In this document: positions 2,753-57,946 of the stretch, in pieces
Layout: every line of letters begins with the position of its first letter
How positions within the stretch are numbered: position 1 is the first letter of the stretch
Source of the DNA: a virus
Direction: 5' to 3' (one strand)
Virus record (IMG/VR): IMGVR_UViG_3300043449_002510
Location: 1-64,000 of that record
DNA length: 64,000 bases
Program-made: the position numbers and the translations under genes
Notes under the pieces: generated by a model
The model's input: the letters and a program-made list of their open reading frames with translations, nothing else
Told to the model about the DNA's origin: nothing
Databases searched by the model: none

Positions 2753-2767
2753 ATTTAAGATACCAAG

Positions 2768-6602: not shown

Positions 6603-7524
6603 TATGGAAGTTATATGCAAGATTTGTCAATTAAAGTTTGATAGCGATTTATCTTTCCATGCCCATTTAAAATCTCATAAAATTAGACAGGCTGAATATT
6701 ATCAAACTCATTATCCTAGATATGATAAATTTGATAAATCAATTATAAAATTTAAAAATAAAGAACAATATTTTAATACTGAGTTTAATTCAAGATTATC
6801 TTTTAAAAATTGGATTTTATCTGCTTCTTCAATAATTGCAGAATCTTATTCAAAAGAAGTTCTTTTAAAAAGAAAAGAAAAAGGCAAAATAAAATTTGCT
6901 CCCACTCAAGTTGAACTAAAAACAATGATGATGCCGGGAATTAAATTTATTAACGAAAAAATAAAAAATTATAATAACTTTTGTAAAGAGTTGGGGCTTG
7001 AAATTAAATTCTCAAAAGAATCTTTAAATGAAAATAATTTTAAAAATATAACTAATAAATATATTTTTACAGATTCGAGAGAACAAAAAGCTTTGGAGTT
7101 TGATAATCGTACAAGAGTCAAGGGTATGTCTTTTGGTGATTATAGAATGAAAGATTCTTCTATTTATATAGAAAGAAAATCAATAAATGATGCTTGGGGA
7201 ACTTTAACTGGAGGATATGAAAGATTTGAAAAGGAAATTATTAGAGCGAAAGAAGCTGAAGGTTATTTAGTTATTTTAGTTGAAGGTCCGTTTAATGAAT
7301 TAGAAAAATTTCCGACTCAAAGACAAGTTTATGGAAAAATTAAAATTCCTGTAGAATTTTTATATCATAATATTAGAGAGCTTTGTCAAAAATATAATCA
7401 TATTCAATTTTTATTTGTTAAAAATAGAGAAGAAGCAAGTAGAGTTATACAAAAAATTTTTGCAGCTGACGAACAAGTTAAAGATGTTGATCTTCAATAT
7501 CTTTACGACATAGGAAAATTATAA
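6595..7524 (+). CDS. C2H2 zinc finger + ERCC4/XPF-type nuclease
   Basis: CKIC..HLKSH; DSREQ, GDY and IERKS..D motifs. Confidence 0.8.
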   Translation: MANMEVICKICQLKFDSDLSFHAHLKSHKIRQAEYYQTHYPRYDKFDKSIIKFKNKEQYFNTEFNSRLSFKNWILSASSIIAESYSKEVLLKRKEKGKIKFAPTQVELKTMMMPGIKFINEKIKNYNNFCKELGLEIKFSKESLNENNFKNITNKYIFTDSREQKALEFDNRTRVKGMSFGDYRMKDSSIYIERKSINDAWGTLTGGYERFEKEIIRAKEAEGYLVILVEGPFNELEKFPTQRQVYGKIKIPVEFLYHNIRELCQKYNHIQFLFVKNREEASRVIQKIFAADEQVKDVDLQYLYDIGKL

Positions 7525-26200: not shown

Positions 26201-26301
26201 ATATAAAAAATACCGGTAATTATCCTCAACCAACAAATTATTTGATTACATTATTTTTGGGAGGTATTTACGACAGATTAAATGTAACAGATTATTCTTA
26301 A
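23251..26301 (+). CDS. Fibre/adhesin protein with VYTTGxQTISGxKTF repeats and a 14-aa beta-roll repeat block
   Basis: Repeats visible in translation; SN[FY]IGxxAG block at ~24910-25460. Confidence 0.75.
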   Translation: MATYDSTVRLRQLNKPELSGYIVEVIGEIPNTGNLTGSFYPLNSNPSGFVTTSQTGDFITQIDLDSNYYNTLVYVGQNYYPSNNPSGYVANLSPIVYATGNQTISGVKNFNSRPLVNGVPVLIYGEGSGSGSLSGAVLLVGDQTISGVKTFANQVNVLGSFVVGNQIFEVDNVGNVSILDTVIDQNSFQFTNGSSFNILGISGTSIQLYESLITGFKNISATNIYKSGYPVIASNQLTGGTGIKIEQINNLIKISVTGIQGGSTVVSGIQNVVYTTGQQIISGAKTFVNQINIPSLDENSMLIAVPGAITIYDSTLSKNIFEFDEIGESFNLFGKDYTAIKLYDKIITGFNNVSSKDIEVTGNLYVSGNIIGGNVQNVVFTTGQQTISGYKTFNSGANFLTALYYNSNQVVTGSVVRPSDISDVVYLTGVQTITAQKNFSNGANFSGRLQLSGNSVITGAENLGNGEKIFTGINSKSEIKLRTLRAGSGIRITGNSNELFIDFTGSFSGEIVIPPVENVVYTTNVNQTISGEKTFVGKLITNQIYNNSSNYVYSNYIGTNAGIGDISATNYNSNYIGYYSANNNYGTNDYSNIIGNFAGANSYYLDNSNYIGNYAGYYTFECFYSNFIGSNAGANSVSCNFSNFIGNDAGVNANTCQLSNFIGYRAGYDTDLSDHSNFIGREAGVSADQSNDSNFIGTKAGYLGLNSSKSNFIGYSAGESALNAKNSIFIGTNAGYSNNLNNGENDFSILIGNYTSGKKNSIAIGQGAANSYEKQLNIGNVIYASGINTGINPSSSPALGRVGVLVESPLYTLDVNGSGNFRSGLFVSGISVLTGINTSSFITTSQTGNFVNLNTSQVISGIKTFLTGVVVSGVLSGKNIISENRGYGAGIYTFQKELSSNTSGDIFKIENLGIDYSSIVCDVMINSSWYVGKKYSVIYNPLNLDGPATSSLTLNNGPITSIGYTHDFDVKFQGLYAGNGFKMNIKNTGNYPQPTNYLITLFLGGIYDRLNVTDYS

Positions 26302-32654: not shown

Positions 32655-35600
32655 ATGATAGGAATTTCCAGTTCAAATGTAGGATATTCGAGATCTGCTG
32701 TTGACGCAAAAATCGCAGCAATACCAAAGGTTTCTGGAGTTGTTTATACAACTGGAAATCAAAGCATTAGTGGGTCTAAAACATTTTTAAATGGCTTAAA
32801 TGTTTCTGGAACTGAGGTTATTAGTTCAACAGGTGTATCAAATGTACCCTTAATTGTATCTGGAGTCAGCGGTCAAAGCGCCCACTTATTTAGGACGATA
32901 AACGGAGCAAATGGAAGAATATTGACTTCATCAAGAAGTGATGGAACTCTTGCCGCCAATAAATTAGTTTTATTTAGAGATTCATATGGAAGTGATTTAG
33001 ACATTATTACGATGTCTATTAAAGATAATAATCAAGGTTTGTTAATTTATACTTATGGATCATATTATTGTTTTTCAAATCAAACTCCTGGAAAATTAGT
33101 CTCTGTTGGCGGATATATCGGCGGAACTGGAGATGAAGGATATTTTGCTTTAGGCGGGACAACCGTAACTCCAACTACAAATGGAGATGTATTTTTAAGG
33201 CGTGATGCAGCAAATATTTTTGCTCAACAAAATGGTGTAAATTCCCAGACTTTTAGAGTCTACAATACTTATACCAATACAAATAATTTTGAAAGAGCCA
33301 AAGTTGGCTGGAATAATAACGCCTTAGAAATTGGCACAGAGCAGGGTTCTACAGGTGGGCTTCCTAGAGACATAAAATTTTTGACGAGTGGAGTAGAAAG
33401 AGGTTATTTATCTGCGGATGGTTCATTATTTGCAGTGTCAGGAGTTTTGCAAGCTGGAGTCGGAAACAATAATAGCGCTCCGCAGATAAGAATGGGTGGA
33501 GTTTCTTCTAGCCAATATGCAGGATTTTCAAGAGGAAGTGGCGGCGGAGGCAATGGAGACATACTTGTCTGGAATGGTGGAGTAATGAAAACAGTTTTTT
33601 CTTATCAAGGAGTTTTAATTTCCTCTGATAATGCTTTAATGTTTTCAGATGGAACAAATCCAATTGGTATAAATTCAAAAAATGTTACACTCAGAAGAGA
33701 TGGAAATGGAATCTTGGCTCTAAGAAGTCATACTTTTGATACTAATAATACTCCACAACAATTTAGAATTTATAAAGATGTAAGTGCTACTACTGGCCAA
33801 TTTGGATTAGCAGGTTGGTCTGGTGATAATTTTGTTTTAGGGGCGCAGGCTTTTACTGGCGGAGTTGTATGGAATACAATTATTACTGGTAATTCAATTA
33901 ATTTACTTCCAAAGACTGGGATAGTTAATGTTAGTGGTCAAATTTTGACTAATCAGCGTCCATTGGTCAATGGAACAGGAGTTCTTCTTAGCGGCGAAGC
34001 AGCATCTTTGCCAACTACAATTGTTTATACCACTGGCAGCCAAACCATCTCTGGAAACAAAACTTTCACCGCAGATTTAAAAGCCAGTTCTCTTATCATA
34101 GAACCAGGAAGTTTTAGAATTTTTGATAATGTATTTTCTGGAGACGTTTTGAGTTTAACAGAAGGTTCATCTTTTGTTTTGGGAGCTGGCGCTTCTCAAA
34201 TCGATATATATAATCAAACAATTACTGGTTTTGGAATCTATTCTGATAACATTTATCAAAATGGAAACTTAGTAATAACAACTGCTGATACTGGAAACTT
34301 TTTAACAACATCATCTAATGTTGTTTATACTACTGGATCACAAAATATTACTGATTTAAAAACATTTGAATCTATTCGAATAGGAAATGATGCTGGAATA
34401 TATTTAACTGGTGGAAATAGTCAAATTATTTTCTATGATTCTTATTCTCCATTAGAAGCTCTTAGACTTGAACAAGAATTATTTGATTTAAAAGGGCCAG
34501 GTAATCAAATAATTAGAGTATATAATGGATTAATTGCAGGATTTAGTGAAATTTATTCTGAATATGTATATGGAGATAATTTAGTTTATTTAACCGGCAA
34601 CCAAACAATAACTGGAACTAAATATTTTAATAATGTTTACGCCAATAATCTTTATGTAAATGGTACTGAAACTATTGTTAACACAACTAGTTTAAATGTT
34701 GCAGATAATTTTATCTATTTAAATGCCACTGGAGGAGTAAGAGATGCTGGAATATTTATTAATTTTGCCTCTGATTCAGGAAGCGGCGCTTATATTGGTT
34801 GGGATATACCATCCAACTCATGGAGATTTGGAAGTGGAGTTTCTGAAACTGATTTAGGAACTTTAGATTACATTGCTTCTCAAAGCTGGGTAATAGGTCA
34901 ATCTTATGTAAATACTGGTCAAACTGGTATATTTTTAACTGCTGCTTCTAACGTAGTATATACCACTGGAAATCAAAATATAAGTGGAGTTAAAATTTTT
35001 AATGATGAAGTTATCGCTACTGGATCTTTGACTTTATCTGGAAATGGTGCCCTTTTAAAAGAGGCGGGAACATTTGGAGTACGTTTAGTACCGGCTTACG
35101 GCAGTAGCGCTTGGAGAGTTTCTCTTAACAACGTTCCCAACAATACATATTGCTATTTTGGTTATCATGGTGGCTTTAGAAATGGTTTTTGGAATAATTA
35201 TCTCGGAACTTTTGGGTGGACAGCAGATGGTAATGCTGCTAATACACCAGATACACTTTTAAGTAGAGATGCTGCTGGTATAATAGCTCAACAAAATGGA
35301 GTAAACGCCCAAACATTTAGGGTTTATAATACATACTCCACAACTGGAAGTTTCGAAAGAGCTAAATTAGGTTGGAACTCTAATGTTCTTGAAATTGGTA
35401 CTGAGCAAGGTTCTACTGGCGGAGTTGCAAGAAATTTAGCTTTAGTAACCAGCGGTCAACAAAGAGTTACTGTTGATACTATTGGCAGAGTTGGCATCAA
35501 TACAACTTCTCCTTCGGAAAGATTAAGTGTTAATGGTAACATATTAGTAACTGAATATATAATTAATGCCTCCAATTTAAGCGGCTTAAACACAAATTCT

Positions 35601-38600
35601 ATAGGCGTCAATGCGGGAATCAATGCAACAGGAGCAACTTATTCAAATTTCTTAGGAAATTATGCTGGTTATCAAGCGACCAACGCATTAAAATCAAACT
35701 TTTTAGGTGGATATGCTGGAAACGCTGCAATAAATTCTTCACAAAGTAATTTCTTGGGATATTATGCTGGATTTGGAGCAACAAATGCGAATGATTCAAA
35801 TTTTATTGGTCAACAAGCTGGTCAAAATGCAAATAACGCCAATAATTCTAACTTTTTAGGAAATTATGCTGGTGGTTTTGCAGTTAGTGCATCTAACTCA
35901 ACTTTTATAGGATCATTAGCTGGTTATGAAGCTGTCAGTGGAAACGATAGTAATTTTCAAGGAAATAGAGCTGGTTATCAAGCAAGCGGCGCGAATAATT
36001 CAAACTTTTTAGGTTATCAAGCTGGTTATCAAGCTTCATTAGCAAGGAATAGTAATTTTCAAGGTTATCAAGCTGGTTATCAAGCGACAAGTGGAAACGA
36101 TAGTAATTTCCAAGGATATCGCGCTGGTTATCAAGCTACTAGCGCTAATCGCTCTAACTTTTTAGGATATCAAGCTGGATATCAAGCAACAAATGCATTT
36201 GAATCAAACTTTTTTGGTTATTATGCTGGTTTATCAGCAACAACTGCTAATAATTCTAATTTCTTGGGAACTTTCGCTGGATGGAATGCAGTGAATGGTA
36301 ATAATTCTAACTTTTTTGGATATGCTGCCGGTACTGCTGCAACAAATGCATATCGTTCAAACTTTTTAGGATATTATGCTGGATATGCAGCAACAAATGC
36401 TTATAACTCAAATTTCTTAGGATTTTATGCTGGATATCAAGCTATAAATACTATTAATTCTAATTTCTTGGGATCAGAAGCTGGATATCAAGCAAGTGGT
36501 GCTGACAATAGTAATTTCCAGGGTTTCCAGGTGGGCTATCAGGCAACGAATGCTAATAGTTCTAGTTTTTTTGGTTATCGTGCCGGTTACCAAGCTGCGA
36601 GCGCTAATAACTCTAATTTCTTGGGACAAGAAGCAGGCTATCAAGCTTCTGGCGCTAATAGAAGCAATTTTCAAGGTTATCGTGCTGGTTACCAAGCGGC
36701 AAGCGCAAATCAATCAAATTTCTTGGGATATCAGGCTGGATATGTTGCGACAAATGCATATAGCTCTAACTTTTTTGGATTTCTTGCTGGTTATAATGCT
36801 ATAAATGCAAACAATTCTATTTTTATAGGAGATTATGCTGGTTATAGTTCTACAAATGCAAATAACTCTAATTTCTTAGGAAAACAAGCTGGAAGAGAAA
36901 CTAATGTAGTTTACTCAAACTTTTTAGGAGCTTCAGCTGGATATTTAGCTGCTAGCGCTAGTTATTCTAATTTCTTAGGAAATTACGCTGGATATTCTGG
37001 AGCACTCGCAAGTAATTCTAACTTCTTAGGAAATAACGCTGGGTATTTGGCAGTATATGCATATTACTCAAATTTCTTAGGCTATAGGGCTGGAAATCTT
37101 GCATCGAACGCTGATAATTCCAATTTCTTAGGACAAGATGCAGGATATCAAGCAACAAGCGGCAATAATAGTAATTTTCAAGGTTATCAAGCGGGATATC
37201 AAGCGACTGGCGCTAATAATTCAAATTTCTTAGGAAATCAAGCTGGATATCAAGCGACAAGTAGTAACAATTCAAACTTTTTAGGATATAGAGCGGGTTA
37301 TCAAGCTACAAGTGCTAGTAATTCTAATTTCGTTGGAAATACCGCAGGTCAATCTGCGCCAAATGCTAATCGTTCAAATTTCTTTGGACAACAAGCTGGA
37401 TATTTTGCAACAAGCGGTAATGATTCTAACTTTTTAGGATATCAAGCTGGAAGAGAAGCAGTAAGCGCTAATAACTCAAATTTCTTTGGGTATCAGGCCG
37501 GTTATCAAGCAACAAATGCTTTTAATTGTAATTTCTTGGGACAATATGCAGGGTATCAAGCAAGCGGCTTAAAACAATCAAACTTTTTAGGTAATGCTGC
37601 TGGTCAAAATGCAACTAATGCTGAATTTTCAAACTTTTTGGGTGCTAGTGCCGGTTTTAATTCTACAAATGCATATCATTCAAATTTCTTTGGAAGCAAT
37701 GCGGGTAGAGATGCAGCAACTGGACAATATTCAAACTTCTTTGGATTTAACGCTGGTAGAGAAGCGGTAAATGCTAATAATTCAAACTTTTTCGGATGGT
37801 TTGCGGGTTATCAAGCAAGTGGAGCTAGTAATTCTAATTTCTTAGGAAATTATGCTGGACAACAAGCCACAAATGCAAATAGATCAAATTTCTTTGGCTT
37901 AAATGCTGGTAATGGAGCGAGAAATGCAGCTGATTCAAATTTCTTTGGAAATTTAGCTGGCCAAAGTGCAATAGCTGCTGTATATTCTAACTTTTTAGGA
38001 TTTCAAGTTGGTTATCAAGCGAGTGGTGCAGAAATTTCTAATTTCTTAGGATATCAAGCAGGATATCAAGCAAGCGGCGCAAGTCATTCATTCTTTGCTG
38101 GTTACAGAGCTGGATATCAAGCTCCCAACGCCAATAACAGCATCTTCATTGGTCGAAGTGCTGGTGTTAATGATACAGTTAACAATGCAACTAATAAATC
38201 CTCCATTCTCATTGGTAACTATACTTCTACCAGCGGATATTCTGACAGTATTGCAATTGGTCAAGGTGTTGCAAACAGTGCAACACAACAGTTAAACATT
38301 GGAAATGTTTTATACGCAACAAATATAAACAATGCAACTACTCCAACTTCAACTCCTGTATTAGGAAGAGTTGGTGTGCGCGTAGCAAATCCTCAATATA
38401 CTCTTGACATAAATGGCTCTGGCAATTTCTCCAGCGGCATTTATGTAAGTGGTAATTCTACTTTCTACAACAATTTATCGATAAGCGGCCACTTATCTGC
38501 AACATCCAAAGCATTCAAAATAAATCATTTATCCAAGCCAGGAAAATATTTAATTCACGGCGCTTCTGAAGCTCCAGAGTGGACTGTTTTCGTCAGAGGG

Positions 38601-38825
38601 AAAACGGATGAACCAATAATCAGCTTACCAGATTACTGGTCATGGCTTGTTCACGAAAATTCTGTCACTTGCACAATAACGCCAATTGGCAAGCCAATGA
38701 ACTTATACATTGTAGAACAAACAAATGAAAAAATAGTAATTGGCGGCTTGGAAGCTGGCGGCAGCTACAATTATATTGTTTACGGCGAAAGAAAAGATAT
38801 TGACAAATTAATTCCTGAAATTTAA
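32655..38825 (+). CDS. Giant fibre/adhesin, 2056 aa, with ~60 14-aa repeats
   Basis: SNFLGYQAGYQATxA repeats; C-terminal KAFKINH...HGASEAPE...RG...LPDYW domain typical of fibre ends. Confidence 0.8.
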   Translation: MIGISSSNVGYSRSAVDAKIAAIPKVSGVVYTTGNQSISGSKTFLNGLNVSGTEVISSTGVSNVPLIVSGVSGQSAHLFRTINGANGRILTSSRSDGTLAANKLVLFRDSYGSDLDIITMSIKDNNQGLLIYTYGSYYCFSNQTPGKLVSVGGYIGGTGDEGYFALGGTTVTPTTNGDVFLRRDAANIFAQQNGVNSQTFRVYNTYTNTNNFERAKVGWNNNALEIGTEQGSTGGLPRDIKFLTSGVERGYLSADGSLFAVSGVLQAGVGNNNSAPQIRMGGVSSSQYAGFSRGSGGGGNGDILVWNGGVMKTVFSYQGVLISSDNALMFSDGTNPIGINSKNVTLRRDGNGILALRSHTFDTNNTPQQFRIYKDVSATTGQFGLAGWSGDNFVLGAQAFTGGVVWNTIITGNSINLLPKTGIVNVSGQILTNQRPLVNGTGVLLSGEAASLPTTIVYTTGSQTISGNKTFTADLKASSLIIEPGSFRIFDNVFSGDVLSLTEGSSFVLGAGASQIDIYNQTITGFGIYSDNIYQNGNLVITTADTGNFLTTSSNVVYTTGSQNITDLKTFESIRIGNDAGIYLTGGNSQIIFYDSYSPLEALRLEQELFDLKGPGNQIIRVYNGLIAGFSEIYSEYVYGDNLVYLTGNQTITGTKYFNNVYANNLYVNGTETIVNTTSLNVADNFIYLNATGGVRDAGIFINFASDSGSGAYIGWDIPSNSWRFGSGVSETDLGTLDYIASQSWVIGQSYVNTGQTGIFLTAASNVVYTTGNQNISGVKIFNDEVIATGSLTLSGNGALLKEAGTFGVRLVPAYGSSAWRVSLNNVPNNTYCYFGYHGGFRNGFWNNYLGTFGWTADGNAANTPDTLLSRDAAGIIAQQNGVNAQTFRVYNTYSTTGSFERAKLGWNSNVLEIGTEQGSTGGVARNLALVTSGQQRVTVDTIGRVGINTTSPSERLSVNGNILVTEYIINASNLSGLNTNSIGVNAGINATGATYSNFLGNYAGYQATNALKSNFLGGYAGNAAINSSQSNFLGYYAGFGATNANDSNFIGQQAGQNANNANNSNFLGNYAGGFAVSASNSTFIGSLAGYEAVSGNDSNFQGNRAGYQASGANNSNFLGYQAGYQASLARNSNFQGYQAGYQATSGNDSNFQGYRAGYQATSANRSNFLGYQAGYQATNAFESNFFGYYAGLSATTANNSNFLGTFAGWNAVNGNNSNFFGYAAGTAATNAYRSNFLGYYAGYAATNAYNSNFLGFYAGYQAINTINSNFLGSEAGYQASGADNSNFQGFQVGYQATNANSSSFFGYRAGYQAASANNSNFLGQEAGYQASGANRSNFQGYRAGYQAASANQSNFLGYQAGYVATNAYSSNFFGFLAGYNAINANNSIFIGDYAGYSSTNANNSNFLGKQAGRETNVVYSNFLGASAGYLAASASYSNFLGNYAGYSGALASNSNFLGNNAGYLAVYAYYSNFLGYRAGNLASNADNSNFLGQDAGYQATSGNNSNFQGYQAGYQATGANNSNFLGNQAGYQATSSNNSNFLGYRAGYQATSASNSNFVGNTAGQSAPNANRSNFFGQQAGYFATSGNDSNFLGYQAGREAVSANNSNFFGYQAGYQATNAFNCNFLGQYAGYQASGLKQSNFLGNAAGQNATNAEFSNFLGASAGFNSTNAYHSNFFGSNAGRDAATGQYSNFFGFNAGREAVNANNSNFFGWFAGYQASGASNSNFLGNYAGQQATNANRSNFFGLNAGNGARNAADSNFFGNLAGQSAIAAVYSNFLGFQVGYQASGAEISNFLGYQAGYQASGASHSFFAGYRAGYQAPNANNSIFIGRSAGVNDTVNNATNKSSILIGNYTSTSGYSDSIAIGQGVANSATQQLNIGNVLYATNINNATTPTSTPVLGRVGVRVANPQYTLDINGSGNFSSGIYVSGNSTFYNNLSISGHLSATSKAFKINHLSKPGKYLIHGASEAPEWTVFVRGKTDEPIISLPDYWSWLVHENSVTCTITPIGKPMNLYIVEQTNEKIVIGGLEAGGSYNYIVYGERKDIDKLIPEI
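35610..38170 (+). repeat. Degenerate 42-bp coding tandem repeat, about 60 units
   Basis: tcwaayttyttwggwtatcaagcwggwtatcaagc recurs every 42 nt; count estimated from span. Confidence 0.9.
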
Positions 38826-41204: not shown

Positions 41205-43274
41205 ATGCCCAACATTTTAATTAATCCAAGCTCAGGAATACTGGAATTCAATACAGGAATAGCCGGTGGATCATCTTTTTCTTCACTTTCTGGCGCGTCG
41301 AGGTTTACTTTTAATAGCGGCGAGATTAATCTTGCCAGTTACGCAACTGGCGTAAAAGACCGTTTTACTATTGATGGTTCGGCTGGCCGCTTATTTTCTG
41401 TCTCTGATGCATTAACGGGCACAATTTTTTCTGTTAACGATATAGCGGGCCTTCCGCTTATTGAAGTTGTTTCAACCAGCGGCGACACCATTACAATGGG
41501 GCCTTATAATACCAGCACTTTTGTAATAAAAGATACCAAAGTTGGCATTGGAACTGGAAATCCATCTTATATTTTAGATGTAAATGGATCAGCAAAAATC
41601 TTATCAATTTATGCAGATGGAGATAATGGAACTAGAATGGGAGCTATTGCAGAAGGTTTTGTAACAAATAGAACTTTATCTGTTGGAACTGTTACCTCTG
41701 GTCCTAATTATGCAAATTGTCAAGCTGTTATTATAGGTACAACTTCGACAAGGCATGCTTTAGTTGTTCAAGGATTAGATTCAACTTATACAGCAAATCT
41801 TTTGAGATTTAGAGTCGGAACAAATGTTGTTGGATTTATTAATTCTGGAGCTAACTTTTTTGCAATGGGTGGTACAGGAAATACTTCTGCCGCCATTAAA
41901 AGTTCTGGAATCTCTATTCAGGCAAGATTAGCTGATGATAGTGATTTTGCAGATTTTCAAGCAAAAAATATAACAGCAAATTCAAGCGGTATATTCGGAA
42001 GTGGATTTTTTAGAAGTGGCTTGTCTGCCAGTGGAACTTCAACATTTTATAATCAATTAAATGTTTCTGGAATAAAGTATGATGTATTGACGGGAACACA
42101 AATCCCACCAGCTTATCAAGAAGGTTTCTCTTGGTATGATGATGATAATAAAGCTTTATCTTATTATAATGATGTAAATGGAGTTCCAGTTCATATGGGA
42201 CAACAGCAGCTTGTAAGAGGAACTAATAATCTTCCATTTACTTTAACAAAAGGACAAGTAGTTTATATAACAGGCGCGGGTGGAGGAGACAAGTTCCCAG
42301 GTTTTAGTTTGGCTTTAGCTACTGGCGACAATACCTCCGCAAGAACTATTGGAGTAATTGCAAACGACATTACTTCAAATGGAAAAGGTTATGCAATTTC
42401 ATTCGGCAAATTGGAAGGAATAGATACGAGCGCATATAACGTTGGAGATACTCTTTATCTTTCTTGGACATCTAGCGGAAGTTTTACTGGAGCTAAACCT
42501 CAAGCACCATATCACATGGTCAGAGTCGGCACTGTTTTAAGACAAGGCAACTCTTCCAATGGAGTTATCTTTGTTACCATTCAAAACGGTTATGAATTAG
42601 AAGAATTACATGATGTAAGAATTACCAATCCGCAAAATAATCAAGCAATATTATGGAATTCAACAAGCGGAGTTTGGGCAAATGAACAAATAAGTACTGG
42701 AGACATAAATGGAATTAATAATTTGGTTACCGTTAGTGGAAATCAAACAATTTATGGAAATAAAACATTTGCCGCTGACTTAAATGCAAGCTCTCTTATT
42801 ATAGAACCAGGAAATTTAAGAATTTTTGATAGCGTACTTTCTGGTGATGTTTTTAATTTAACCGAAGGTTCAAATTGCATTGTAAATGGAATTGGTTGTC
42901 AAATTGATTTGTATAGTCAAGTAATTAGCGGATTTGAAATTTATTCTCAAAACATCTACCAAAATGGAAGCTTGGTTATTACTTCAAACGATACTGGTGA
43001 CTTTTTATCAGTATATTCTAATGTAGTTTATACTACTGGAAACCAAACAATCAATGGAATTAAAAATTTTACAAATTCTGTCGGAATTAATAATATATCT
43101 CCATCATATACATTTGACGTAAATGGAAGCGGCAATTTCACTAGTGGCATTTTGACAAGTGGAAATTTTGAATCTTCAACTGCTTCCAATGGAATAATAT
43201 TAAAGTCCCCAAATGGTTCCAGATACAAAATAACAGTAAATAACGATGGATCTTTAAGTACAACATTAATATAA
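41205..43274 (+). CDS. Fibre protein
   Basis: VGIGTGNP..LDVNG, ELEELHDV, QTIxGxKxF repeats, C-terminal ILKSPNGSRYKITV. Confidence 0.7.
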   Translation: MPNILINPSSGILEFNTGIAGGSSFSSLSGASRFTFNSGEINLASYATGVKDRFTIDGSAGRLFSVSDALTGTIFSVNDIAGLPLIEVVSTSGDTITMGPYNTSTFVIKDTKVGIGTGNPSYILDVNGSAKILSIYADGDNGTRMGAIAEGFVTNRTLSVGTVTSGPNYANCQAVIIGTTSTRHALVVQGLDSTYTANLLRFRVGTNVVGFINSGANFFAMGGTGNTSAAIKSSGISIQARLADDSDFADFQAKNITANSSGIFGSGFFRSGLSASGTSTFYNQLNVSGIKYDVLTGTQIPPAYQEGFSWYDDDNKALSYYNDVNGVPVHMGQQQLVRGTNNLPFTLTKGQVVYITGAGGGDKFPGFSLALATGDNTSARTIGVIANDITSNGKGYAISFGKLEGIDTSAYNVGDTLYLSWTSSGSFTGAKPQAPYHMVRVGTVLRQGNSSNGVIFVTIQNGYELEELHDVRITNPQNNQAILWNSTSGVWANEQISTGDINGINNLVTVSGNQTIYGNKTFAADLNASSLIIEPGNLRIFDSVLSGDVFNLTEGSNCIVNGIGCQIDLYSQVISGFEIYSQNIYQNGSLVITSNDTGDFLSVYSNVVYTTGNQTINGIKNFTNSVGINNISPSYTFDVNGSGNFTSGILTSGNFESSTASNGIILKSPNGSRYKITVNNDGSLSTTLI

Positions 43275-43663: not shown

Positions 43664-45505
43664 ATGCCGCGCCACATAATTGATTCAGGAATTCAGTTCA
43701 TTAATGCCATAAATACATCAGGGGTTCCCTTGACTATTTCTGGCGTTAGTGGACAGAGTTCCAATTTGCTTAGAACAATAAACGGCGCAGATGGATCAGT
43801 TTTAACTTCTTTAAGAAGCAATGGATATGTTGGCTCAAAAGGTTTAAAAATAACAAATGATTCAAATGCTGATATAATAACTCTTTCATTATATAATAAT
43901 TATGGATTAATGGTTGATTGTTACGGTGGTCAAACATTTTTTAGCAATTCAAATGGAACAATAGTAACATTAGGTGGTTATATAGGTGGAACAACTAATG
44001 GATACTTTGCATTAGGAGCAACTACCTTAAATAATAGTGTTAATGCTGGTCAAGACACGATTTTTTATCGTGACGCCGCTGGAATATTCGCCCAAAGAAA
44101 TGGTGTAAATTCTCAAACTTTTAGAGTTTATAATACTTATTCAACAACTGGCAATTTTGAAAGAGGCAAAATAGGTTGGAACAACAACGCTTTTGAAATT
44201 GGAACCGAACAAGGTACAACTGGTGGAGTTGCAAGAGATTTGCGCTTTTTAACTAGCGGCTCTGGAAGAATGACGATTACTAGTGGCGGAAATGTAGGAA
44301 TAGGTACAATTAATCCTACAGCTAATTTAGATGTAGATGGTAGTGTAAAAATTGCTAGCGCCAGAAATAATCAATTTCCTCTTTCTATTTACGGAGGTAA
44401 TAGTTCCGCTCAAGCGTGTCATATAATATTGTACAACAATGTTCCTGTTGGAGTTATTAAAGCAGGTGGCAATGGTACAGTTGGGCAAGGATTCGCTAAT
44501 TCAAGTTATAATTACCAACTTTTTGTTAGATGGTCAGATGGTAATGTTGGAATAAATACAACATCACCAAATTATACTTTAGATGTCAATGGCTCTGGAA
44601 TTTTCCAAAGTGGTTTATCAGTTAGCGGTCAAATCATAACAAATCAACGTCCATTAATAAATGGCACCCCAGTTCTTCTCAGCGGAGAGGGCGGCGGAGC
44701 TACTCCAGCAAATTTAGTTTATACAACTGGTACCCAAACAATAGCTGGAGAAAAAACTTTCAGTAATAAAGCCAATTTTTATTCTGGTTTTTCTGTTGGT
44801 AATAATTATTTAAACGCTGACTTTAATAGTTTCGAAATTTTCGATGATCCAAATTTCCTTACTGTAATGAAGTATGCTGAAAATACTGAATTTTATTTTG
44901 AAGGGCCATCTGGAGCAAAAGTTGATGTATGGAATAGCAATGTTTCTAATTTTGATAAAATTTCTTCAAATTTAATTTCTGGCACTAACCTCAGTTTAGA
45001 AAGTGGAATTAAATTTAACGGAGGCATTTCTAATAAAAGCTTCGAGATCTATAAAGATGACAAAACTTACAATTTTAGCATGGGGCCTACTGGAACTTGG
45101 GGCGCTTTTGGTTCAACTTTAATTTCTTTAACTAGTGGTGGCCCAAACATTAGTAATAATTTTACTCCATCTTTTAAATTAATAGATCAATCAAATTCTC
45201 AATTTTTTGAAATTGGTGGATATTCTGATGATGAACAATATGGTTCATTTAGCACTTTTAGAATGGGGAGCGAGGGGCTTGGATATTGGAGTGCAGGTGG
45301 TGGAATTTTTGCTGTAAGAGGAACAAATGTAGGTATAGGTACTGCTTATCCTGGTCATAAATTAGATGTAGATGGTAATATTAATGCCACTAGTTTTTCT
45401 TCAAGTGGAAACGCAGGAATGACAACTTCCGTCTCTGTTATAGATAATAGCAACAATGTAATTACATTAAACTTTGAGAACGGATTACTTATATCAATAA
45501 CTTAA
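43664..45505 (+). CDS. Fibre protein sharing modules with 32655-38825
   Basis: RDAAGIFAQRNGVNSQTFRVYNTY module; GNVGIGT repeats. Confidence 0.7.
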   Translation: MPRHIIDSGIQFINAINTSGVPLTISGVSGQSSNLLRTINGADGSVLTSLRSNGYVGSKGLKITNDSNADIITLSLYNNYGLMVDCYGGQTFFSNSNGTIVTLGGYIGGTTNGYFALGATTLNNSVNAGQDTIFYRDAAGIFAQRNGVNSQTFRVYNTYSTTGNFERGKIGWNNNAFEIGTEQGTTGGVARDLRFLTSGSGRMTITSGGNVGIGTINPTANLDVDGSVKIASARNNQFPLSIYGGNSSAQACHIILYNNVPVGVIKAGGNGTVGQGFANSSYNYQLFVRWSDGNVGINTTSPNYTLDVNGSGIFQSGLSVSGQIITNQRPLINGTPVLLSGEGGGATPANLVYTTGTQTIAGEKTFSNKANFYSGFSVGNNYLNADFNSFEIFDDPNFLTVMKYAENTEFYFEGPSGAKVDVWNSNVSNFDKISSNLISGTNLSLESGIKFNGGISNKSFEIYKDDKTYNFSMGPTGTWGAFGSTLISLTSGGPNISNNFTPSFKLIDQSNSQFFEIGGYSDDEQYGSFSTFRMGSEGLGYWSAGGGIFAVRGTNVGIGTAYPGHKLDVDGNINATSFSSSGNAGMTTSVSVIDNSNNVITLNFENGLLISIT

Positions 45506-51112: not shown

Positions 51113-54100
51113 ATGGCAATGCAATTAAATGTTACGGTTAATCCCGTATTTAATAATTCTCAATTTACGGCAGCAGGAGTTCAGGCAGGATCTAATTTTG
51201 CTAATGGATTAAATTCTGCTATTTCTAAATCTCAACCATTAGGCAGAATAACTGGTCAAGTCTCTGAATTTGAAAAATCAATGGAAGCTGCAAACGCTCG
51301 CGTTTTAGCTTTCGGTGCTTCTGCTGGATCTATTTACTTGATAAAAAGCGCATTTGATAAATTGTTTTTCTCTACAGTTCAAGTTGAAAAAGCTTTAGCT
51401 GACATTAATGCGATTCTTGGAGTTGGAAGTTCTCTTTTAAAATCTTTTTCTAACGAAATATTCAAAGCCGCCTCTTTTACTGGTCAAACATTCGAAACGG
51501 CGGCAAAAGTAGCTCTTGAATTTGCTCGCCAAGGTGCTGGAGCGGAAGAAGCTGCAAAAAGGATGAAGGCTGCCCTAGAATTAATGAGAATTTCAGGTTT
51601 AAACGCAGATGAAGCCGTCAATTCTATAACTTCTTCCTTAAATGCTTTTTCAAAAGAAGCTTTAACAGCAGAAGATGTTGTAAATAGATTAACCGCTGTT
51701 GATACTAAATTCGCAGTTAGTTCAAAAGACTTGGCTAATGCACTTCAGCGTGTTGGGGCCGTTGCTAGTGACGCCGGAATTCAATTTAATGAACTCTTAG
51801 GTTTAGTTACCGCCGCTCAAACTATAACTGCTCGCGGTGGAGCAGTTATTGGTAACGCATTTAAATCTATTTTTACTAGATTAGCTAGACCTCAAGTTTT
51901 AGATGACTTGGAGGCCGTGGGAGTTACAACAAGAAATGCTTCTGGACAAATTCTTCCAATGATAAGCGTTTTAAAAAATCTTGCTAATCAATACAACTCT
52001 CTTGGTTCAGCACAGAAATCTTTTATATCTGAATCTGTTGGCGGAGTTTATCAAGTCAATATTTTAAAAGCGGCCTTGGCTGATTTAGGTGATGGCATTT
52101 CTATTTTTGATAAAGCAACAATTGCGGCAGGTCAATCTACTGGATTAATTCAAAAAAGAATGGAAGAGCTTAATGAAACAATTTCTTCCAAACTTAATAC
52201 TTCTGCTGTGGAATTGACAAAATTATTCGCTGATCTTGGACAAAAAGCTTTTGGTTCAAGCGCAAAAGGAGCAATAGACGCCTTTAATAAAAATATATCA
52301 TTTTTAAGTAATGCATTAAGTGACGTAGAGCCAGATGATAATGTTGGAGAACAAATAGGTAAAACCATTGCTCAAGGAATTGTTAAAGGAATAGGGGGAA
52401 TTATATCTGGCCCAGGAGTTCAAATCGCAGCAGTTTTATTAACAAAAATGTTTTCCAACATCGGGAAGTTTGCCATTGAGGCTTCTCGTGATTTTATGGG
52501 AGCAAATGAGGCTTTAAAAAAGCAGGAAAGTATTGTTAGTAGCATTCAAAACTTCTTAAGTAAAAATCCAACTATCCTCCAAGCAATAAAAGCTGGACAA
52601 TTAAATGTAAATCAAGCTCATTTAATTTATTTACAGCAGTTGCAACAAGAAAATCAACTTAGGGCTCAGAATGCTGCTATAGCTACAACAATTGCGACTA
52701 ATGCTGCACCTTATATAACTACTTCTAAAAAACAAACTCCTGGAGCTGGTTATATTCCTAATTTTGCCCAAGATGAAAGTAGTACTGAAAAAAGAATTGC
52801 TCTTAATCATGGATATGCTCCAGGCCCCACTTATAAAAAAATAATTCATGATGGAAAAGGTGGAGCTTTTTTAACTACAGTAAATGGAGCAGAAAATATA
52901 TATAACTTTACTAATAAAAAGGGTTATAAAGCTACAATGGTTGTTCCACCTAATGGATTTGGAGAAAACACAATGATGGCTGGCTCTGGTTTTATTCCAA
53001 ATTTTGCTAAAATTTCTCGAACTGGAACACAAATATCAAATAATAAAAGTTTTTCAACATTAATTAGTGGAAAACATGCAAATGGAATAGATACATTTAG
53101 TGCAAGCTATAATTTATTTACTTTAAATGAAACTAATAAACAGATTGAGAGAGAAGCGAAGGCAAAAAATATAAGTAAAGGAAGATTAACTGAATTAAAG
53201 GCAATTGAATATTTAAAGAAAAAATCTCCAAACAAAAAAGCCAATGACCTTAATGAAATTAATAGTACATATCCTTTTGATTTAGAACAGGGTGGTAATT
53301 TTTATGAAGTAAGGGGAAGAAGAAATGTTGGAGCGACCGCTCTCGTAGCAAAAGCTGCAAGATATAAAATAAATAAAAATAATAAATTTAATAATGTTAC
53401 TTTTGATTCTCCTCCCAAAAAACAATCAGAAGAATTAGGAAATTTTAATTTAATAACTTTAAAAAATTCTATATTAGCTAGCGAATTCTTAAATAAAGGA
53501 AGTGGATTTATTCCAAATTTCGCAGAGTCTTCTTTGCCGCCAATTCCATTTCAAATAGTTGGATTAAATAAAAAATTAAAAAATCTCAAAGAAAAAGCAA
53601 AACAAGATCCAAAACTTTGGGATCAATTTAGAATGGCGTATCAAGACCATGCCATAAAAATTTTTGAAAAAAAATTAACACAATTATATCCGGGAACAGT
53701 AATAAAAAGTTCTACTCCAACTGCAAACATTAGTGGAGCTGGACTTGGATTCACTGGTAAAAAAAGTTTTCCTGGATTCGATGGAGTTACAGAAATACAA
53801 ACAGTTAATCCAGATTTATTACAAATATTAGGATGGCCACCTAACAAAAATTCAGGAAAAATTCTTATTTCAGCAAAATCTGGATCTGAAAAAGGAGCAG
53901 ATGTAAGAGAACAATTCGGAAAAGGAGTAAGCGCTCTTTCTTCATCTGGATATTTAAAACCGGAAGAACCTTTTTATTCACTTGTAGCTGGACTTGTTCC
54001 TGGATCTGGTTTAAAACCAAATAATCCACTTCATCCTTTGGGACACGCCTATGCGTCTGGTTTTATTCCAAATTTTGTTTCTGAAAATGCAATTAATGCA

Positions 54101-57100
54101 CTGAGAGAAATTGCAAGTGGAAAGCGTGGTGGTACGAAAGCAGAAATTGCGAACGCACAAGAAAAAATAAATAAAATTTTAGGCTCAGATAAATTAAGTA
54201 AATCTTTAATATTAACGAACAGATCTTTATTTGGCAAAAAATTAGACTCTGATGCTTTGGCATATATTTCTAAAACTTCTCCAGAACAATTAACCAAAGA
54301 CTTAAAAAGTGGTTATTTAGAGGGATCAATTGGCCACGATCTTTCTAATTTTAGAAATTCAATATTTAGCGCTGGTTCTGGTTTTCTTCCAAATTTTGCT
54401 TATGGTTATTATTCTAAATATAGTTCTTCATATGGCAAACAAAGTGGATATAAACCTAGTAAAAGTTTACAAAAAGAAAAGGAAGAAAAGAGAAGACAAA
54501 AAGAATTATATGGAAATTATTATAAAAGCCCAGAAATAACAAGTAATCCTTGGTCAAAAAATTTCGGTAAAGATTTTTCTGCTTCAGGATTTCTACCAAA
54601 CTTTGGTTACTTAAAAAAAGTAATGGGATTAGAAAAAACTCTTAGCGGCAAGGAGCCAATTTTAGATACCACTACTGGTCCATTTCCTTTTATTAGGAAT
54701 ACAGACCAACCGAATTTTGCAGCAGCGGTCGCTGATCATGGAGGATTAAAAAATGCCTTAAAAGATTCTTCTAAAAATCAAAAAGCCGCTGGAATAATGG
54801 CTGGAGGTGGTTTTATTCCAAATTTTGGAGTAGAAGAAAGTTTAATGCTTGGCGTTGTTCAAGCTTTTTCTGGACAATTATCTTCAAAATTAAAACCTCT
54901 TTCTTTTGGATATGATAAACAAATTGAAGAAAGTCAAAAAGTAGTTTCTGCAGCTCAACCATTAGCCGACGCTTTTGACGAATTAAAAAATAAATTGGCT
55001 TCCGTAAGCAAACAATATAAAGAAGAAGCTAAAAAACGACAAACGCCAAAGAGAAGAGCCGAGCAACAAGCAAGAATCTCAGAAATGAAATCTGTCTCTG
55101 CAGAAATGCGTGTAAAACGAACTGAATATAAAAAAGAAACGGGATTAGATATTAACAGACAAAAAAGAGAAGATCAAGCTAAAAAATTTGTTGAATATGA
55201 ACAAAAATTAACAGGAACAAGAGAAAAAATACAGGGTATCAGTGGTATCGCTTCTATTGTTTCTCCAATGGCTGGAGGTATGGCGGCCTCTGCATTAAAA
55301 ACACTTGGAGTCTCACCAGATACCACAAAGGGAGTAGAAACTTTATTTGAAGGAGCAGGTATGGCTGGACAAGCATTAATGGCCATGCCTAATCCAATCG
55401 GAATAGCAGTTGCTGGACTTTTAGGCGTCACCAAAATAAACACAGCCTTAAATGAATTTACTTCTGGTCTTGAAAAGGCAAAAGCGTCTTATGAAAGAGA
55501 AATGCAATCAATAGAAAAAACAACTAATGCATTAAATTCAATTCAACAAAATTATCAAAATTTAGATAATATTTTAAAATCTGGAACCGCTTCTCTTTCT
55601 CAATTTTTATCTGCAAATAGAAAATTTTCAGAATCAATGGTTAAACTAGCTTCTGCTAATCCACAATTAGCAGAAAAAATGAGAAAAGCCACTACAGAAG
55701 AAGAAAGAATGGCAATTCAGAGTGAATTTTCAGAGGCTTCTGAATTAAAAAAGAGACAAAAAGAATTCGACGTAATGTACGCCGAGAGGAAAAAAGAAAC
55801 AAATGTTTTAGGGTCAAATGTTCTTGCGATGGGTCGTGAAAGAGGGAGATTTTCTGTTGGAATGTTTGCTGGAAAAGAAGAGGAAAAAAAAGTAGAAAGC
55901 GAATTAAAAGAAGCCGCAACATTAATTCAATCTGAAGTTATAGATGCTCTTTCAAAGAGTGAGAAAAAAGAAGAAAGAGATTTAGCGGCAGAAATAACCA
56001 GAGGTTTATCAAAAGGATACATTACTGAAGAAAACAAAAAAGAATTATTAAGTTATGCTGAATATGGAAGAGAAGGAAAACAGTATTCTGAAACTATTGG
56101 CAAAATGGATATTTATGCAGAAATAAAGGCTTCTTTACAAGAGTTATCTAAAATTCTCGATACTTTTGGAATGAGTGCAAGCAGTGTTGAACAATACGAA
56201 AATCTTCTAAAAGAACAAAACGAAATAACTAGTAAACAAAATGCAATAAGAAGAAAACATAACCAAGATTTACAAAACTCACTAAATAGAGGTATTACGC
56301 TTGGGATGATTGAAAATAAAAGACGCCAACAATCATTAGAACAAAAAGAAAGAGATACGGGCATGAAATATGCTTTTGAAGAATCTAATATAAATTTAGA
56401 GTCTTTGGTTTCTTCCGAAGCGGATATACGTTATAGACGCGGAGTTTCGAGACAAAATCAAATAATTGAAGAAGGACAATTAAAACAAGAAAAAACAAAG
56501 AGTGTCTTTGAAGAAAATCGTCTTGGACAATTAATGGAAGTAGTTAAACAACAAATGGAGGCAAAAAATGCTTCTTCATTAAAAAGTGGTAAAGATGTTT
56601 ATAGTATAGAGCCATCTAAAGAATCCCAATCCCTTGCTAATTTTTTAGAATCAAAATCTAAAGAATTTTCTGGAGGAAATGTTGGAAAATTAACTGAATT
56701 ATTAAAATTGACTCCAGAAAAATTTACTGAAGCTTTTCTTGGTCCAAAAGAGAAAGCGCAAAAAGATTTTGGAATTTCGAGTTCAACTTATGACACATTA
56801 TTTACAGATATACAAACCCTTACTCTTTCGGGAAAAAATACAGAAGAAACTAATAATTATTTAAATGATTTATTAAGAACCGCGCAAGAAACCAAGAATA
56901 ATGCTGAAAAAAATGCTTTAGAAACTCAAACTGCAATTAAAGAAATTAGTTTCAAAGAACTAAGTCAATCATTAGGCGGTTTAAGTTTGCTGGAAAGAGG
57001 TGGAGTTAGAAAAGAGCGTAGAGAAATAAGAAGAGCTGAATTTCTTGCTGAACGCGGAGCAACTCCAGAAGCTAGAGCTAGAGGAGCTGCTGCTTTATTA

Positions 57101-57946
57101 AAACGTATACCAGAAACCATGAGAGATGTTAGAAATCCAATGGTTGCTGATTTACTTAAAACAGTTGAATTAGGATTTCGATCTGGCAATGAAAAAGTTT
57201 TATCTGGAACTAAATTAGGTGCTTCTGGTTTAATGGGAAGTCCTGAACAAATGATTCTAGCTCAAACATATGGAAATATAAAAACATCTGGATTAGGAGA
57301 AGACTTCTTTAAGAAAGCGGGATTAACTATTGAAAAAGGAGAGATTGGTCGAGGTCAATTTCAAGAATTAAACACTGAGCCTTTACAACAATCCATAACA
57401 AAAATATCTTCATCTTTATATATTTGGGAAACAAATCTTTTAAACTCAATCAAATCAGTAAATTTTAATTCAGTAAAAACACAACTTTCTGATTTGGAAG
57501 AAGCTTCAAAAGGCGTGACTGACGAATTGAGAAATTTAAAAGAAAGCCTTACTCCGAAAACTCCAGTGGAATCAAAAGGTTCACCAAAAGCTATTCCAAC
57601 TAGTTTCGCTAATTTACAAGCGGTAGTAAGTAAAAACGCACCCTCTGAAACTTTAAATGTTACTCAATCAACTCCAAAAGTTAAAAAAACACCAGCAGGA
57701 AAAGAAGAGGAGTCTAAAAAGACAGAAAATAAATCAGAACAAGGAACGTCTGCATTAAATGAGGAATTAATTGAAAATATAAGATCATTAACTTCTGTCA
57801 TGAATGAAGCTGCAAATGCTTTTAAAGAATCTAAATCAACAATGAGCGCTGATGAACTTAAACGGGCTTTCGGTCCAACTAATGAAATTTTAGGCTCAAT
57901 TCTTGGCGCAACTCAGTCAGATAAAAATTTACCAGTTTCAGTATAA
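51113..57946 (+). CDS. Tail tape measure protein (TP901-like N-terminal core) with internal motif-delimited domains
   Basis: EFARQG, LA.ALQRVG.VA, RGGAVIGNAFKSIFTRL, LEAVGV motifs; long helical A/Q/E/K-rich protein. Confidence 0.9.
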   Translation: MAMQLNVTVNPVFNNSQFTAAGVQAGSNFANGLNSAISKSQPLGRITGQVSEFEKSMEAANARVLAFGASAGSIYLIKSAFDKLFFSTVQVEKALADINAILGVGSSLLKSFSNEIFKAASFTGQTFETAAKVALEFARQGAGAEEAAKRMKAALELMRISGLNADEAVNSITSSLNAFSKEALTAEDVVNRLTAVDTKFAVSSKDLANALQRVGAVASDAGIQFNELLGLVTAAQTITARGGAVIGNAFKSIFTRLARPQVLDDLEAVGVTTRNASGQILPMISVLKNLANQYNSLGSAQKSFISESVGGVYQVNILKAALADLGDGISIFDKATIAAGQSTGLIQKRMEELNETISSKLNTSAVELTKLFADLGQKAFGSSAKGAIDAFNKNISFLSNALSDVEPDDNVGEQIGKTIAQGIVKGIGGIISGPGVQIAAVLLTKMFSNIGKFAIEASRDFMGANEALKKQESIVSSIQNFLSKNPTILQAIKAGQLNVNQAHLIYLQQLQQENQLRAQNAAIATTIATNAAPYITTSKKQTPGAGYIPNFAQDESSTEKRIALNHGYAPGPTYKKIIHDGKGGAFLTTVNGAENIYNFTNKKGYKATMVVPPNGFGENTMMAGSGFIPNFAKISRTGTQISNNKSFSTLISGKHANGIDTFSASYNLFTLNETNKQIEREAKAKNISKGRLTELKAIEYLKKKSPNKKANDLNEINSTYPFDLEQGGNFYEVRGRRNVGATALVAKAARYKINKNNKFNNVTFDSPPKKQSEELGNFNLITLKNSILASEFLNKGSGFIPNFAESSLPPIPFQIVGLNKKLKNLKEKAKQDPKLWDQFRMAYQDHAIKIFEKKLTQLYPGTVIKSSTPTANISGAGLGFTGKKSFPGFDGVTEIQTVNPDLLQILGWPPNKNSGKILISAKSGSEKGADVREQFGKGVSALSSSGYLKPEEPFYSLVAGLVPGSGLKPNNPLHPLGHAYASGFIPNFVSENAINALREIASGKRGGTKAEIANAQEKINKILGSDKLSKSLILTNRSLFGKKLDSDALAYISKTSPEQLTKDLKSGYLEGSIGHDLSNFRNSIFSAGSGFLPNFAYGYYSKYSSSYGKQSGYKPSKSLQKEKEEKRRQKELYGNYYKSPEITSNPWSKNFGKDFSASGFLPNFGYLKKVMGLEKTLSGKEPILDTTTGPFPFIRNTDQPNFAAAVADHGGLKNALKDSSKNQKAAGIMAGGGFIPNFGVEESLMLGVVQAFSGQLSSKLKPLSFGYDKQIEESQKVVSAAQPLADAFDELKNKLASVSKQYKEEAKKRQTPKRRAEQQARISEMKSVSAEMRVKRTEYKKETGLDINRQKREDQAKKFVEYEQKLTGTREKIQGISGIASIVSPMAGGMAASALKTLGVSPDTTKGVETLFEGAGMAGQALMAMPNPIGIAVAGLLGVTKINTALNEFTSGLEKAKASYEREMQSIEKTTNALNSIQQNYQNLDNILKSGTASLSQFLSANRKFSESMVKLASANPQLAEKMRKATTEEERMAIQSEFSEASELKKRQKEFDVMYAERKKETNVLGSNVLAMGRERGRFSVGMFAGKEEEKKVESELKEAATLIQSEVIDALSKSEKKEERDLAAEITRGLSKGYITEENKKELLSYAEYGREGKQYSETIGKMDIYAEIKASLQELSKILDTFGMSASSVEQYENLLKEQNEITSKQNAIRRKHNQDLQNSLNRGITLGMIENKRRQQSLEQKERDTGMKYAFEESNINLESLVSSEADIRYRRGVSRQNQIIEEGQLKQEKTKSVFEENRLGQLMEVVKQQMEAKNASSLKSGKDVYSIEPSKESQSLANFLESKSKEFSGGNVGKLTELLKLTPEKFTEAFLGPKEKAQKDFGISSSTYDTLFTDIQTLTLSGKNTEETNNYLNDLLRTAQETKNNAEKNALETQTAIKEISFKELSQSLGGLSLLERGGVRKERREIRRAEFLAERGATPEARARGAAALLKRIPETMRDVRNPMVADLLKTVELGFRSGNEKVLSGTKLGASGLMGSPEQMILAQTYGNIKTSGLGEDFFKKAGLTIEKGEIGRGQFQELNTEPLQQSITKISSSLYIWETNLLNSIKSVNFNSVKTQLSDLEEASKGVTDELRNLKESLTPKTPVESKGSPKAIPTSFANLQAVVSKNAPSETLNVTQSTPKVKKTPAGKEEESKKTENKSEQGTSALNEELIENIRSLTSVMNEAANAFKESKSTMSADELKRAFGPTNEILGSILGATQSDKNLPVSV

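Follow-up and report, generated by a model that had tools for sequence, protein, structure and literature searches.

The 64-kb stretch of DNA analyzed here (hereafter, the window) is the first part of a 124,148-bp single phage-like contig with a guanine-plus-cytosine (GC) content of ~30%. Its largest open reading frame (ORF; 51113..57946, + strand) encodes a tape measure protein (TMP) of 2277 amino acids (aa; P0001), the middle third of which is punctuated by a short, repeated peptide motif. By its sequence, this protein is a TP901-family TMP: PF10145 (phage minor tail protein, TP901-family TMP) matches aa 123-304 (51479-52024, +) at 88.9 bits, above the gathering cut-off of 33.2, and 12 PHROG tape-measure families match it as well (best E = 2.5e-39). 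The Pfam match lies inside a conserved N-terminal region (aa 1-545; 51113..52747, +) with many invariant columns, a hydrophobic stretch at ~aa 423-448 (hydropathy), and 53-59% identity to the relatives L001-L006; cultured siphophages of Bacillus and Lactococcus also have TMPs that share 23-28% identity with the first 540 aa. The C-terminal part (aa 1239-2277; 54827..57946, +) is ruler-like, shares 23-27% identity with its counterparts in L001-L007, and contains two hydrophobic, Gly/Ala-rich stretches within aa 1375-1449 (nt 55235-55459; hydropathy). The ORFs that adjoin the TMP gene (candidate tube, chaperones, and distal tail) could be assigned no PHROG or Pfam family, and we therefore nominate no partner for the motif among them.

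Seven copies of the motif G[FY][IL]PNF were found by pattern search in the window TMP, all on the + strand and at coordinates that agree with the 9- to 10-residue peptides of the original prediction. Counted from the core G, which is the first residue in each case, these copies are GYIPNF at aa 546-551 (52748..52765); GFIPNF at aa 626-631 (52988..53005), aa 798-803 (53504..53521), and aa 983-988 (54059..54076); GFLPNF at aa 1090-1095 (54380..54397) and aa 1159-1164 (54587..54604); and, again, GFIPNF at aa 1233-1238 (54809..54826). Shuffling the protein 2000 times yielded 0.0005 copies per shuffle, and the pattern is absent from every other frame of the window. A looser pattern, run across the 124-kb contig, gave one extra match on the opposite strand, which is unrelated and chance-like.

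The motif cores delimit six segments (s1 to s6) of 74, 166, 179, 101, 63, and 68 aa. As had been predicted, these are mutually unrelated (best BLASTP E = 1.9 among them, and each falls into a separate cluster) and basic, in fact all six rather than most of them, with isoelectric points (pI) of 9.0-9.9. The outermost two are conserved small domains. Clustering and modeling identify s1 (aa 552-625; 52766..52987, +) as a “first” small alpha/beta domain, which clusters with 27 TMPs, is related to 45 more by hhalign (E = 1.2e-9), and has no Pfam match. Its counterpart s6 (aa 1165-1232; 54605..54808, +) is a “last” small domain in a cluster of 58 TMPs; it contains a pseudo-motif, QPNFA (aa 1198-1202; window 54704-54718), at a position where the “last” domain of relatives has the conserved SQPxFxSA. 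A homology between the “first” and “last” domains found no support (hhalign E = 0.086).

Between these two domains lie four cassettes with few relatives. Clustering and phmmer relate the rare cassette s2 (aa 632-797; 53006..53503, +; pI 9.9) only to segments of P0008 and P0012. The near-orphan s3 (aa 804-982; 53522..54058, +) is related only to a P0074 segment (phmmer E = 1.4e-9; hhalign E = 3e-12), with a weak match to P0075. By eye, s2 displays an E..D..ExR pattern that recalls PD-(D/E)xK nucleases, a likeness that no tool supports, and s3 displays, likewise by eye only, an E..D..SxK pattern. The helical cassette s4 (aa 989-1089; 54077..54379, +) belongs to a cluster of 6 and is thus common to 5 other TMPs; its order relative to another cassette differs in P0011 from that in P0007 and P0016. 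Last, s5 (aa 1096-1158; 54398..54586, +) is an orphan that forms a singleton cluster and is rich in Tyr and Lys (19% aromatic residues, 21% K+R). A phmmer search of s2-s3 against 1.84 billion representatives matched 4 TMPs only, and hhalign comparisons of s2, s3, and s4 with the 126 other clusters retrieved only the P0074 segment for s3 and segments of P0019 and P0002 for s4; the sequence alignments available for s2-s5 are shallow. A kinship of s2 or s3 to the common cassettes with E/D/DxK signatures (see below) was not significant by hhalign. Neither Pfam nor NCBIfam gave a match above noise to the window segments, s2-s5 among them, and the ESM Atlas gave no usable match for s2 or for the commonest cassette of the family.

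Cassette exchange across a family of aquatic phages

The motif is not peculiar to the window TMP. Searching a word index with aa 540-1245 (7998 best word-sharing candidates), we found 72 other giant TMPs, and 72 of the 73 proteins, query included, carry 2-12 motif copies. In IMG/VR, 532 relatives were found, from which the best 80 loci were taken. At least two strict copies are present in 134 of 148 unique TMPs, and the loose motif occurs on average 5.1 times per TMP as compared to 0.12 times in shuffled sequences. The shuffle counts, for the window TMP and for the family, rule out chance or low complexity as the source of the motif. Over 442 copies, the consensus reads [AS]-x-G-[FY]-[IV]-P-N-F-[AG], where G, P, and N are fixed by the search pattern; the closest relatives hold looser copies too, such as GGLVPNFA, SGYAPNFG, and NFVPNFG.

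The motif region gave no tblastn match in 50,697 phage records, where the N-terminal domain alone retrieved only the distant Bacillus and Lactococcus siphophage TMPs. In genome collections, relatives sit only on metagenome-assembled genome contigs of aquatic bins, and neither source yielded a cultured relative of the array. Among 8000 scored candidates, no protein of 30-1251 aa was kin to aa 540-1245. The whole gene (51113-57946) is present in one freshwater DNA run, from which it may derive. Small pieces, or motif-coding words only, are present in three more water runs; among such water metagenomes are matches to identical 151-nt pieces (53484-53634 and 54674-54824) as well as to a 94%-alike piece of s4. 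Apparent joints in sequencing runs, considered as variants of the same phage, proved to have sides of <30 nt that come from other TMPs. The sequencing-run search listed no RNA run with a stretch of the TMP gene. The array and its motif are a family-wide trait of uncultivated aquatic phages.

Within this family, the segments between motifs vary strongly in number and identity. Clustering by BLAST sorted the inter-motif segments of 155 TMPs, 643 in total, into 127 clusters, 59 of which are singletons, and 139 TMPs display 101 distinct cassette orders. The commonest layout consists of four motifs around a ~76-aa “first” domain, one cassette of ~250-280 aa, and a ~67-aa “last” domain; the window TMP has the same ends, with s1 and s6 as the homologues, and four cassettes between them. 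Alignments tend to break at the motif: among 11378 ends of 5689 internal BLASTP high-scoring segment pairs (HSPs), 49% lie within 5 aa of a motif, as compared to 7% for random positions. In the closest relatives by N-terminal sequence, the entire six-segment string is exchanged: L006 matches window aa 3-551 at 57% identity and aa 1234-2057 at 26%, yet where the window TMP has six segments it has just one, of ~90 aa, between two motifs. Different cassettes even occur in TMPs whose N-terminal flanks are 94-99.7% identical, as in the pair L010 and P0055, which match over 634 aa at 99.7% identity before their cassettes diverge.

Comparisons at the DNA level resolved these exchanges to the motif-coding sequence itself. 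Relative to L019, L020 has an extra 483 nt (a cassette plus a motif) between 21-nt repeats that are identical at 19 of 21 positions, and the two DNA HSPs of this pair share a 22-nt overlap that is the motif-coding sequence. In L056 and L061, unrelated cassettes of ~780 nt have replaced one another with breaks at motifs 2 and 3, and L018 has two additional cassettes between motif repeats as compared to L016. In all three comparisons, the breakpoints fall on the 21-nt motif-coding sequence. Recombination at precisely these motif-coding repeats, which offer microhomology for it, thus adds, removes, and replaces cassettes. The original prediction had proposed the motif as an insertion point for swappable segments, to be checked by asking whether segments vary while flanks stay constant; on both counts the comparisons bear it out, and we are highly confident that the middle third of the TMP (aa 546-1238) is a modular array whose cassettes are swapped at the motif.

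One might ask whether the motif is anything more than such a DNA junction, a source of microhomology for shuffling whose peptide has no role of its own. The indels and replacements that break exactly at the 21-nt repeats would fit this, as would other contigs from freshwater runs, whose matches to the window are limited to motif-coding words. The codons speak against it: in 165 copies from 76 related genes, the choice among synonymous codons at the motif matches that of the genes at large (Gly, GGA 48% and GGT 35%; Pro, CCT 53% and CCA 37%; Ala, GCA 50% and GCT 39%), from which it follows that conservation acts at the protein level. Furthermore, G, P, N, and F are fixed across TMPs whose N-terminal domains are merely 25-40% identical, and an 18- to 21-nt repeat would need neither a single reading frame nor invariant residues. 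We therefore consider a role as DNA alone very improbable; the motif is kept as protein, not as DNA. Predicted beforehand from synonymous differences among the window copies, this conclusion holds across the family, whereas the variation inside the window is only modest, with 5 of the 7 copies being GGTTTTATTCCAAATTTT or one base away from it.

Folds and signatures of the cassettes

Predicted structures place the motif between folded modules. An AlphaFold model of window aa 540-1245 (54-row alignment) reached a mean predicted local distance difference test score (pLDDT) of 53, with s1 modeled at pLDDT 93-97 as one helix and four strands and s6 at ~58-75 as a helix-strands-helix unit. The cassettes s2-s5 were modeled only in part: s2 and s3 display a mixed fold, s4 is predicted to be helical (pLDDT ~50-70), and the s5 model is of low confidence. 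These models, which cover the cassette region, bear in part on the earlier claim that the segments are unlike the helical TMP on either side, with s1 and s6 as small alpha/beta domains, a mixed fold for s2 and s3, and a helical s4. For the minimal array of L042 (45 rows), the mean pLDDT was 77.7, and all three modules folded confidently. All motifs, 7 of 7 in the window model and 4 of 4 in the L042 model, lie in stretches of pLDDT < 50 between folded parts that reach up to pLDDT 97, and thus the motif is, in these models, the linker between independently folded units. In L042, the low-confidence stretches barely exceed the motif in length (89-97 and 360-366).

In relatives, recognizable enzyme cassettes are each confined to one inter-motif segment. 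These include a GNAT acetyltransferase cassette (cluster of 20) and staphylococcal-nuclease-like (SNase) and DUF7178 cassettes. A 421-aa cassette of L029 and L031 (13028-14290) matches Pfam HIGH_NTase1_ass and a PHROG cytidyltransferase family and contains a P-loop G..G.GK as well as the HIGH-type nucleotidyltransferase signatures TKGH and SGT..R; to judge from these matches, it is possibly an enzyme of nucleotide or cofactor synthesis carried in a TMP. An HExxH motif is invariant in two cassette clusters (7 of 7 and 2 of 2 members), and a Walker A motif, GPSGxGKTT, occurs in one cluster of 10. The consensus sequences of the commonest cassettes contain E..D..(D/E)xK patterns: in the commonest of all, E272, D299, D324, and K326 are invariant or nearly so, and clusters 8, 13, 14, and 15 have similar signatures. 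The HExxH, Walker A, G..G.GK/TKGH/SGT..R, and E..D..(D/E)xK signatures are our own readings, to which profile and fold searches added no confirmation. For PD-(D/E)xK in particular, the cassettes gave no match in Pfam/NCBIfam, in PDB sequences, or with Foldseek, the latter run on multi-domain models, so that this reading rests on sequence signatures; a PDB sequence profile search returned nothing below E = 0.3. The Pfam scans that were run contained no protease family, although no search aimed at proteases was made.

Could the segments instead be structural, serving as spacers, plugs, or parts for penetrating the envelope, whose variation would follow the envelope of the host and not its defenses? 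Most cassettes have no enzymatic signature, the “first” and “last” domains are conserved like structural parts, and passages of the literature on TMPs describe envelope-acting domains in them (PMC1796659; T5 pb2, 10.1101/2022.09.20.507954). Yet the GNAT, SNase, P-loop, HIGH-nucleotidyltransferase, and E/D/DxK signatures suggest substrates in the cytoplasm and not in the envelope, Pfam scans found no peptidoglycan-hydrolase family in the window TMP, and 101 architectures in 139 proteins amount to a turnover that is unusual for structural parts. We consider this explanation improbable.

Elsewhere in the window, the large terminase subunit is encoded at 7524-9368. The BppL_N motif (PF18338, up to 64.8 bits) occurs in each of four large ORFs of 1016 aa (23251-26301), 2056 aa (32655-38825), 689 aa (41205-43274), and 613 aa (43664-45505), which, judged by this shared match, suggests several fiber or receptor-binding proteins with a common trimer-anchoring element. 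Window positions 1-3100, like the last ~150 nt of the contig, have a GC content of 45-51% as compared to ~30% elsewhere. This first part contains only short, overlapping ORFs on both strands and no tRNA, Rfam family, or plasmid match; possible explanations are flanking host DNA, a chimeric end of the assembly, and a terminal region of an unusual kind. Beyond the window, contig positions 74921-79828 and 79840-84738 are adjacent + strand ORFs of 1635 and 1632 aa.

Possible delivery, docking, and processing of the array

Taken together, the array consists of conserved “first” and “last” small domains and, between them, basic cassettes that fold independently and whose set varies, and each junction is one short linker peptide, [AS]-x-G-[FY]-[IV]-P-N-F-[AG]. 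Since TMPs occupy the tail tube and exit ahead of the DNA, we infer that the cassettes are accessory or effector domains that would be delivered, by analogy, to the envelope or cytoplasm of the host upon infection. Their uniform basic charge (pI > 8 in 94% of 606 segments) would suit storage in the tube lumen or binding to nucleic acid. We give about an even chance to this statement as a whole, that is, to a delivered array of accessory domains in which the motif is a junction or handling signal.

What the peptide would do is a further question. It may be a recognition site at which the array is cut into separate domains, either during tail maturation or after ejection. Such a role is plausible given precedent, the location in linkers, and the small residues that precede the motif, and we hold it tentatively, at somewhat less than even probability. 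More doubtful is the extended version in which the TMP is a true polyprotein, cut at the [IV]-P-N-F-[AG] junctions. The cutting would then be done by a phage or host protease, or by a self-cleavage at the invariant Asn that assembly or ejection triggers, and would free a lineage-specific and rapidly reshuffled cocktail of nucleases, acetyltransferases, nucleotide-handling enzymes, and a peptidase where and when the DNA enters.

Several observations weigh against delivery and cutting. The very short linkers and the strongly hydrophobic motif are no less compatible with a docking peptide that lies buried than with a cleavage site that lies exposed. By our own estimate, three folded domains of 160-280 aa in register exceed a tube lumen of ~4 nm, so that either they are stored in an unfolded state or their place is not the lumen. 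Any cutting of the ruler into pieces would, moreover, have to come late. Because there is no cultured relative, ejection of the domains is extrapolated from other TMPs, and no protease partner for the motif was identified among the neighbors of the TMP gene, which have no family assignment. Cassettes with HExxH are confined to 9 of 155 TMPs, and the window TMP has none. As to the cassettes themselves, no Pfam match was obtained for 37 of 40 cluster representatives and no PHROG match for 39 of 40, s2-s5 of the window matched no family, the window model matched no fold, and Foldseek against the PDB and BFVD found nothing at E ≤ 0.001 for either model, a test that multi-domain models weaken. The cargo or effector domains of the original prediction thus fared unevenly: folded domains that do not resemble a ruler, with enzymes among them in relatives, speak for such cargo, and the lack of matches for s2-s5 and for most representatives speaks against it. 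At the level of the family, the reading of cassettes as effectors is partly supported.

The same linkers invite an explanation without cleavage, in which the motif is a docking or packing peptide and the cassettes remain in one chain. Each junction would bind a conserved pocket in the tube lumen, in a tail assembly chaperone, or in the other two TMP chains, whereby bulky or unfolded cassettes would be threaded into the tail and held there. A hydrophobic peptide (F, I/V, F) with invariant G, P, and N that makes up essentially the entire linker fits this well, as does the presence of one motif per module, conserved small domains included. Tail tube lumens are acidic, and all cassettes are basic, as expected of cargo in the lumen.

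We also observed motif copies that bracket a ruler-like stretch of ~730-980 aa, followed by small segments (L032, L049, L052, P0003, P0054, P0058, and P0064); the junction peptide is therefore not limited to the cassette string, and the subfamily copies that flank a ruler segment of ~880-980 aa are in line with docking. Motif copies are slightly more alike within a protein than between proteins (6.54 versus 6.25 of 11 positions; reached in 0 of 500 shuffles), a difference that is small and confounded by relatedness, and all 4 copies of L007 have PNL instead of PNF, as if they changed together. Both features suggest one partner per phage. They would, however, equally suit one protease per phage, and no docking partner was identified among the neighboring genes, which carry no family assignment. 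Docking without cleavage is, in our view, possible but rather unlikely.

Injection of pre-made proteins from the phage head is known, as is the occasional cell-wall enzyme within a TMP. If delivery by the array holds true, phages would have in it a novel and highly plastic means of delivery (at least 532 relatives in IMG/VR; ~127 cassette families in 155 proteins), and the cassettes would form a catalog of mostly unknown domains that are likely active within the first seconds of infection. The motif would mark a natural point for cloning proteins to be loaded into phage tails, and tail length would follow from TMP length in a less simple way than the rule has it. Should the polyprotein version apply, the array would be a phage-tail analogue of MARTX (see below) and a second, head-independent route for pre-made counter-defense proteins. 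The junction peptide itself offers a direct experimental handle.

Comparison with known systems

The closest precedents are other TMPs. As described in passages of the T5 study, pb2 is a trimer that fills the tube lumen and is expelled upon receptor binding, and it is cleaved between its hydrophobic stretch and its enzymatic domain (10.1101/2022.09.20.507954). Passages on mycobacteriophages report that TMP processing is common and that enzymatic motifs are embedded in their TMPs (PMC1796659). The TMPs of TM4 (PMC1796659), T5 (pb2), and lambda (gpH; both 10.1101/2022.09.20.507954) thus belong to the same protein class, with extra domains inside the TMP; as portrayed in those passages, these proteins have one or two peptidoglycan-acting motifs and no repeated junction peptide. 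The window family differs: a TMP can have as many as 12 junctions, and none of the ~127 cassette families, most of them unknown, was recognized as a peptidoglycan hydrolase. A literature search at the level of titles and abstracts found no published account of such a TMP array, and none of the relevant papers contains the motif strings.

Polyvalent proteins resemble the array in content. Sections of their description portray giant multi-domain polypeptides with GNAT, nuclease, and zincin-like peptidase domains and extensive mosaicism, for which entry into the host together with the DNA, followed by processing into separate units, has been proposed (Iyer et al. 2017, PMC5512222). These proteins are head-packaged or transferred by conjugation, and the same sections ascribe their processing to an embedded MPTase domain; the term “tape measure” does not occur in that paper (PMC5512222). 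In the window family, by contrast, the carrier is a TMP, one conserved peptide marks each junction, and an HExxH cassette is present in just those 9 TMPs. Several distinct catalytic domains, as in polyvalent proteins, are seen in relatives, with none assigned in the window cassettes, and the window TMP, lacking HExxH, showed no zincin-like MPTase processing domain. If its cassettes are delivered as proposed above, the array would be the tail's equivalent of the polyvalent proteins packaged in heads.

Two further systems are alike in architecture. MARTX, a kind of toxin that bacteria secrete, is a mosaic string of effectors between conserved regions that varies among strains, has linkers as release points, and targets eukaryotic cells. 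The likeness of the window array to MARTX is one of architecture only and not of membership, as a defined protease, the cysteine protease domain (CPD), is a feature of MARTX: in the portrayal given in parts of PMC3153235, this internal domain releases the effector array. Compared to polymorphic toxins, the window array is distinguished by its many serial junctions inside a virion protein. In these toxins, a short peptide (VENN in CdiA, PxxxxDPxGL in Rhs) marks the point of recombinational exchange, and there is one junction, one C-terminal toxin, and an immunity gene.

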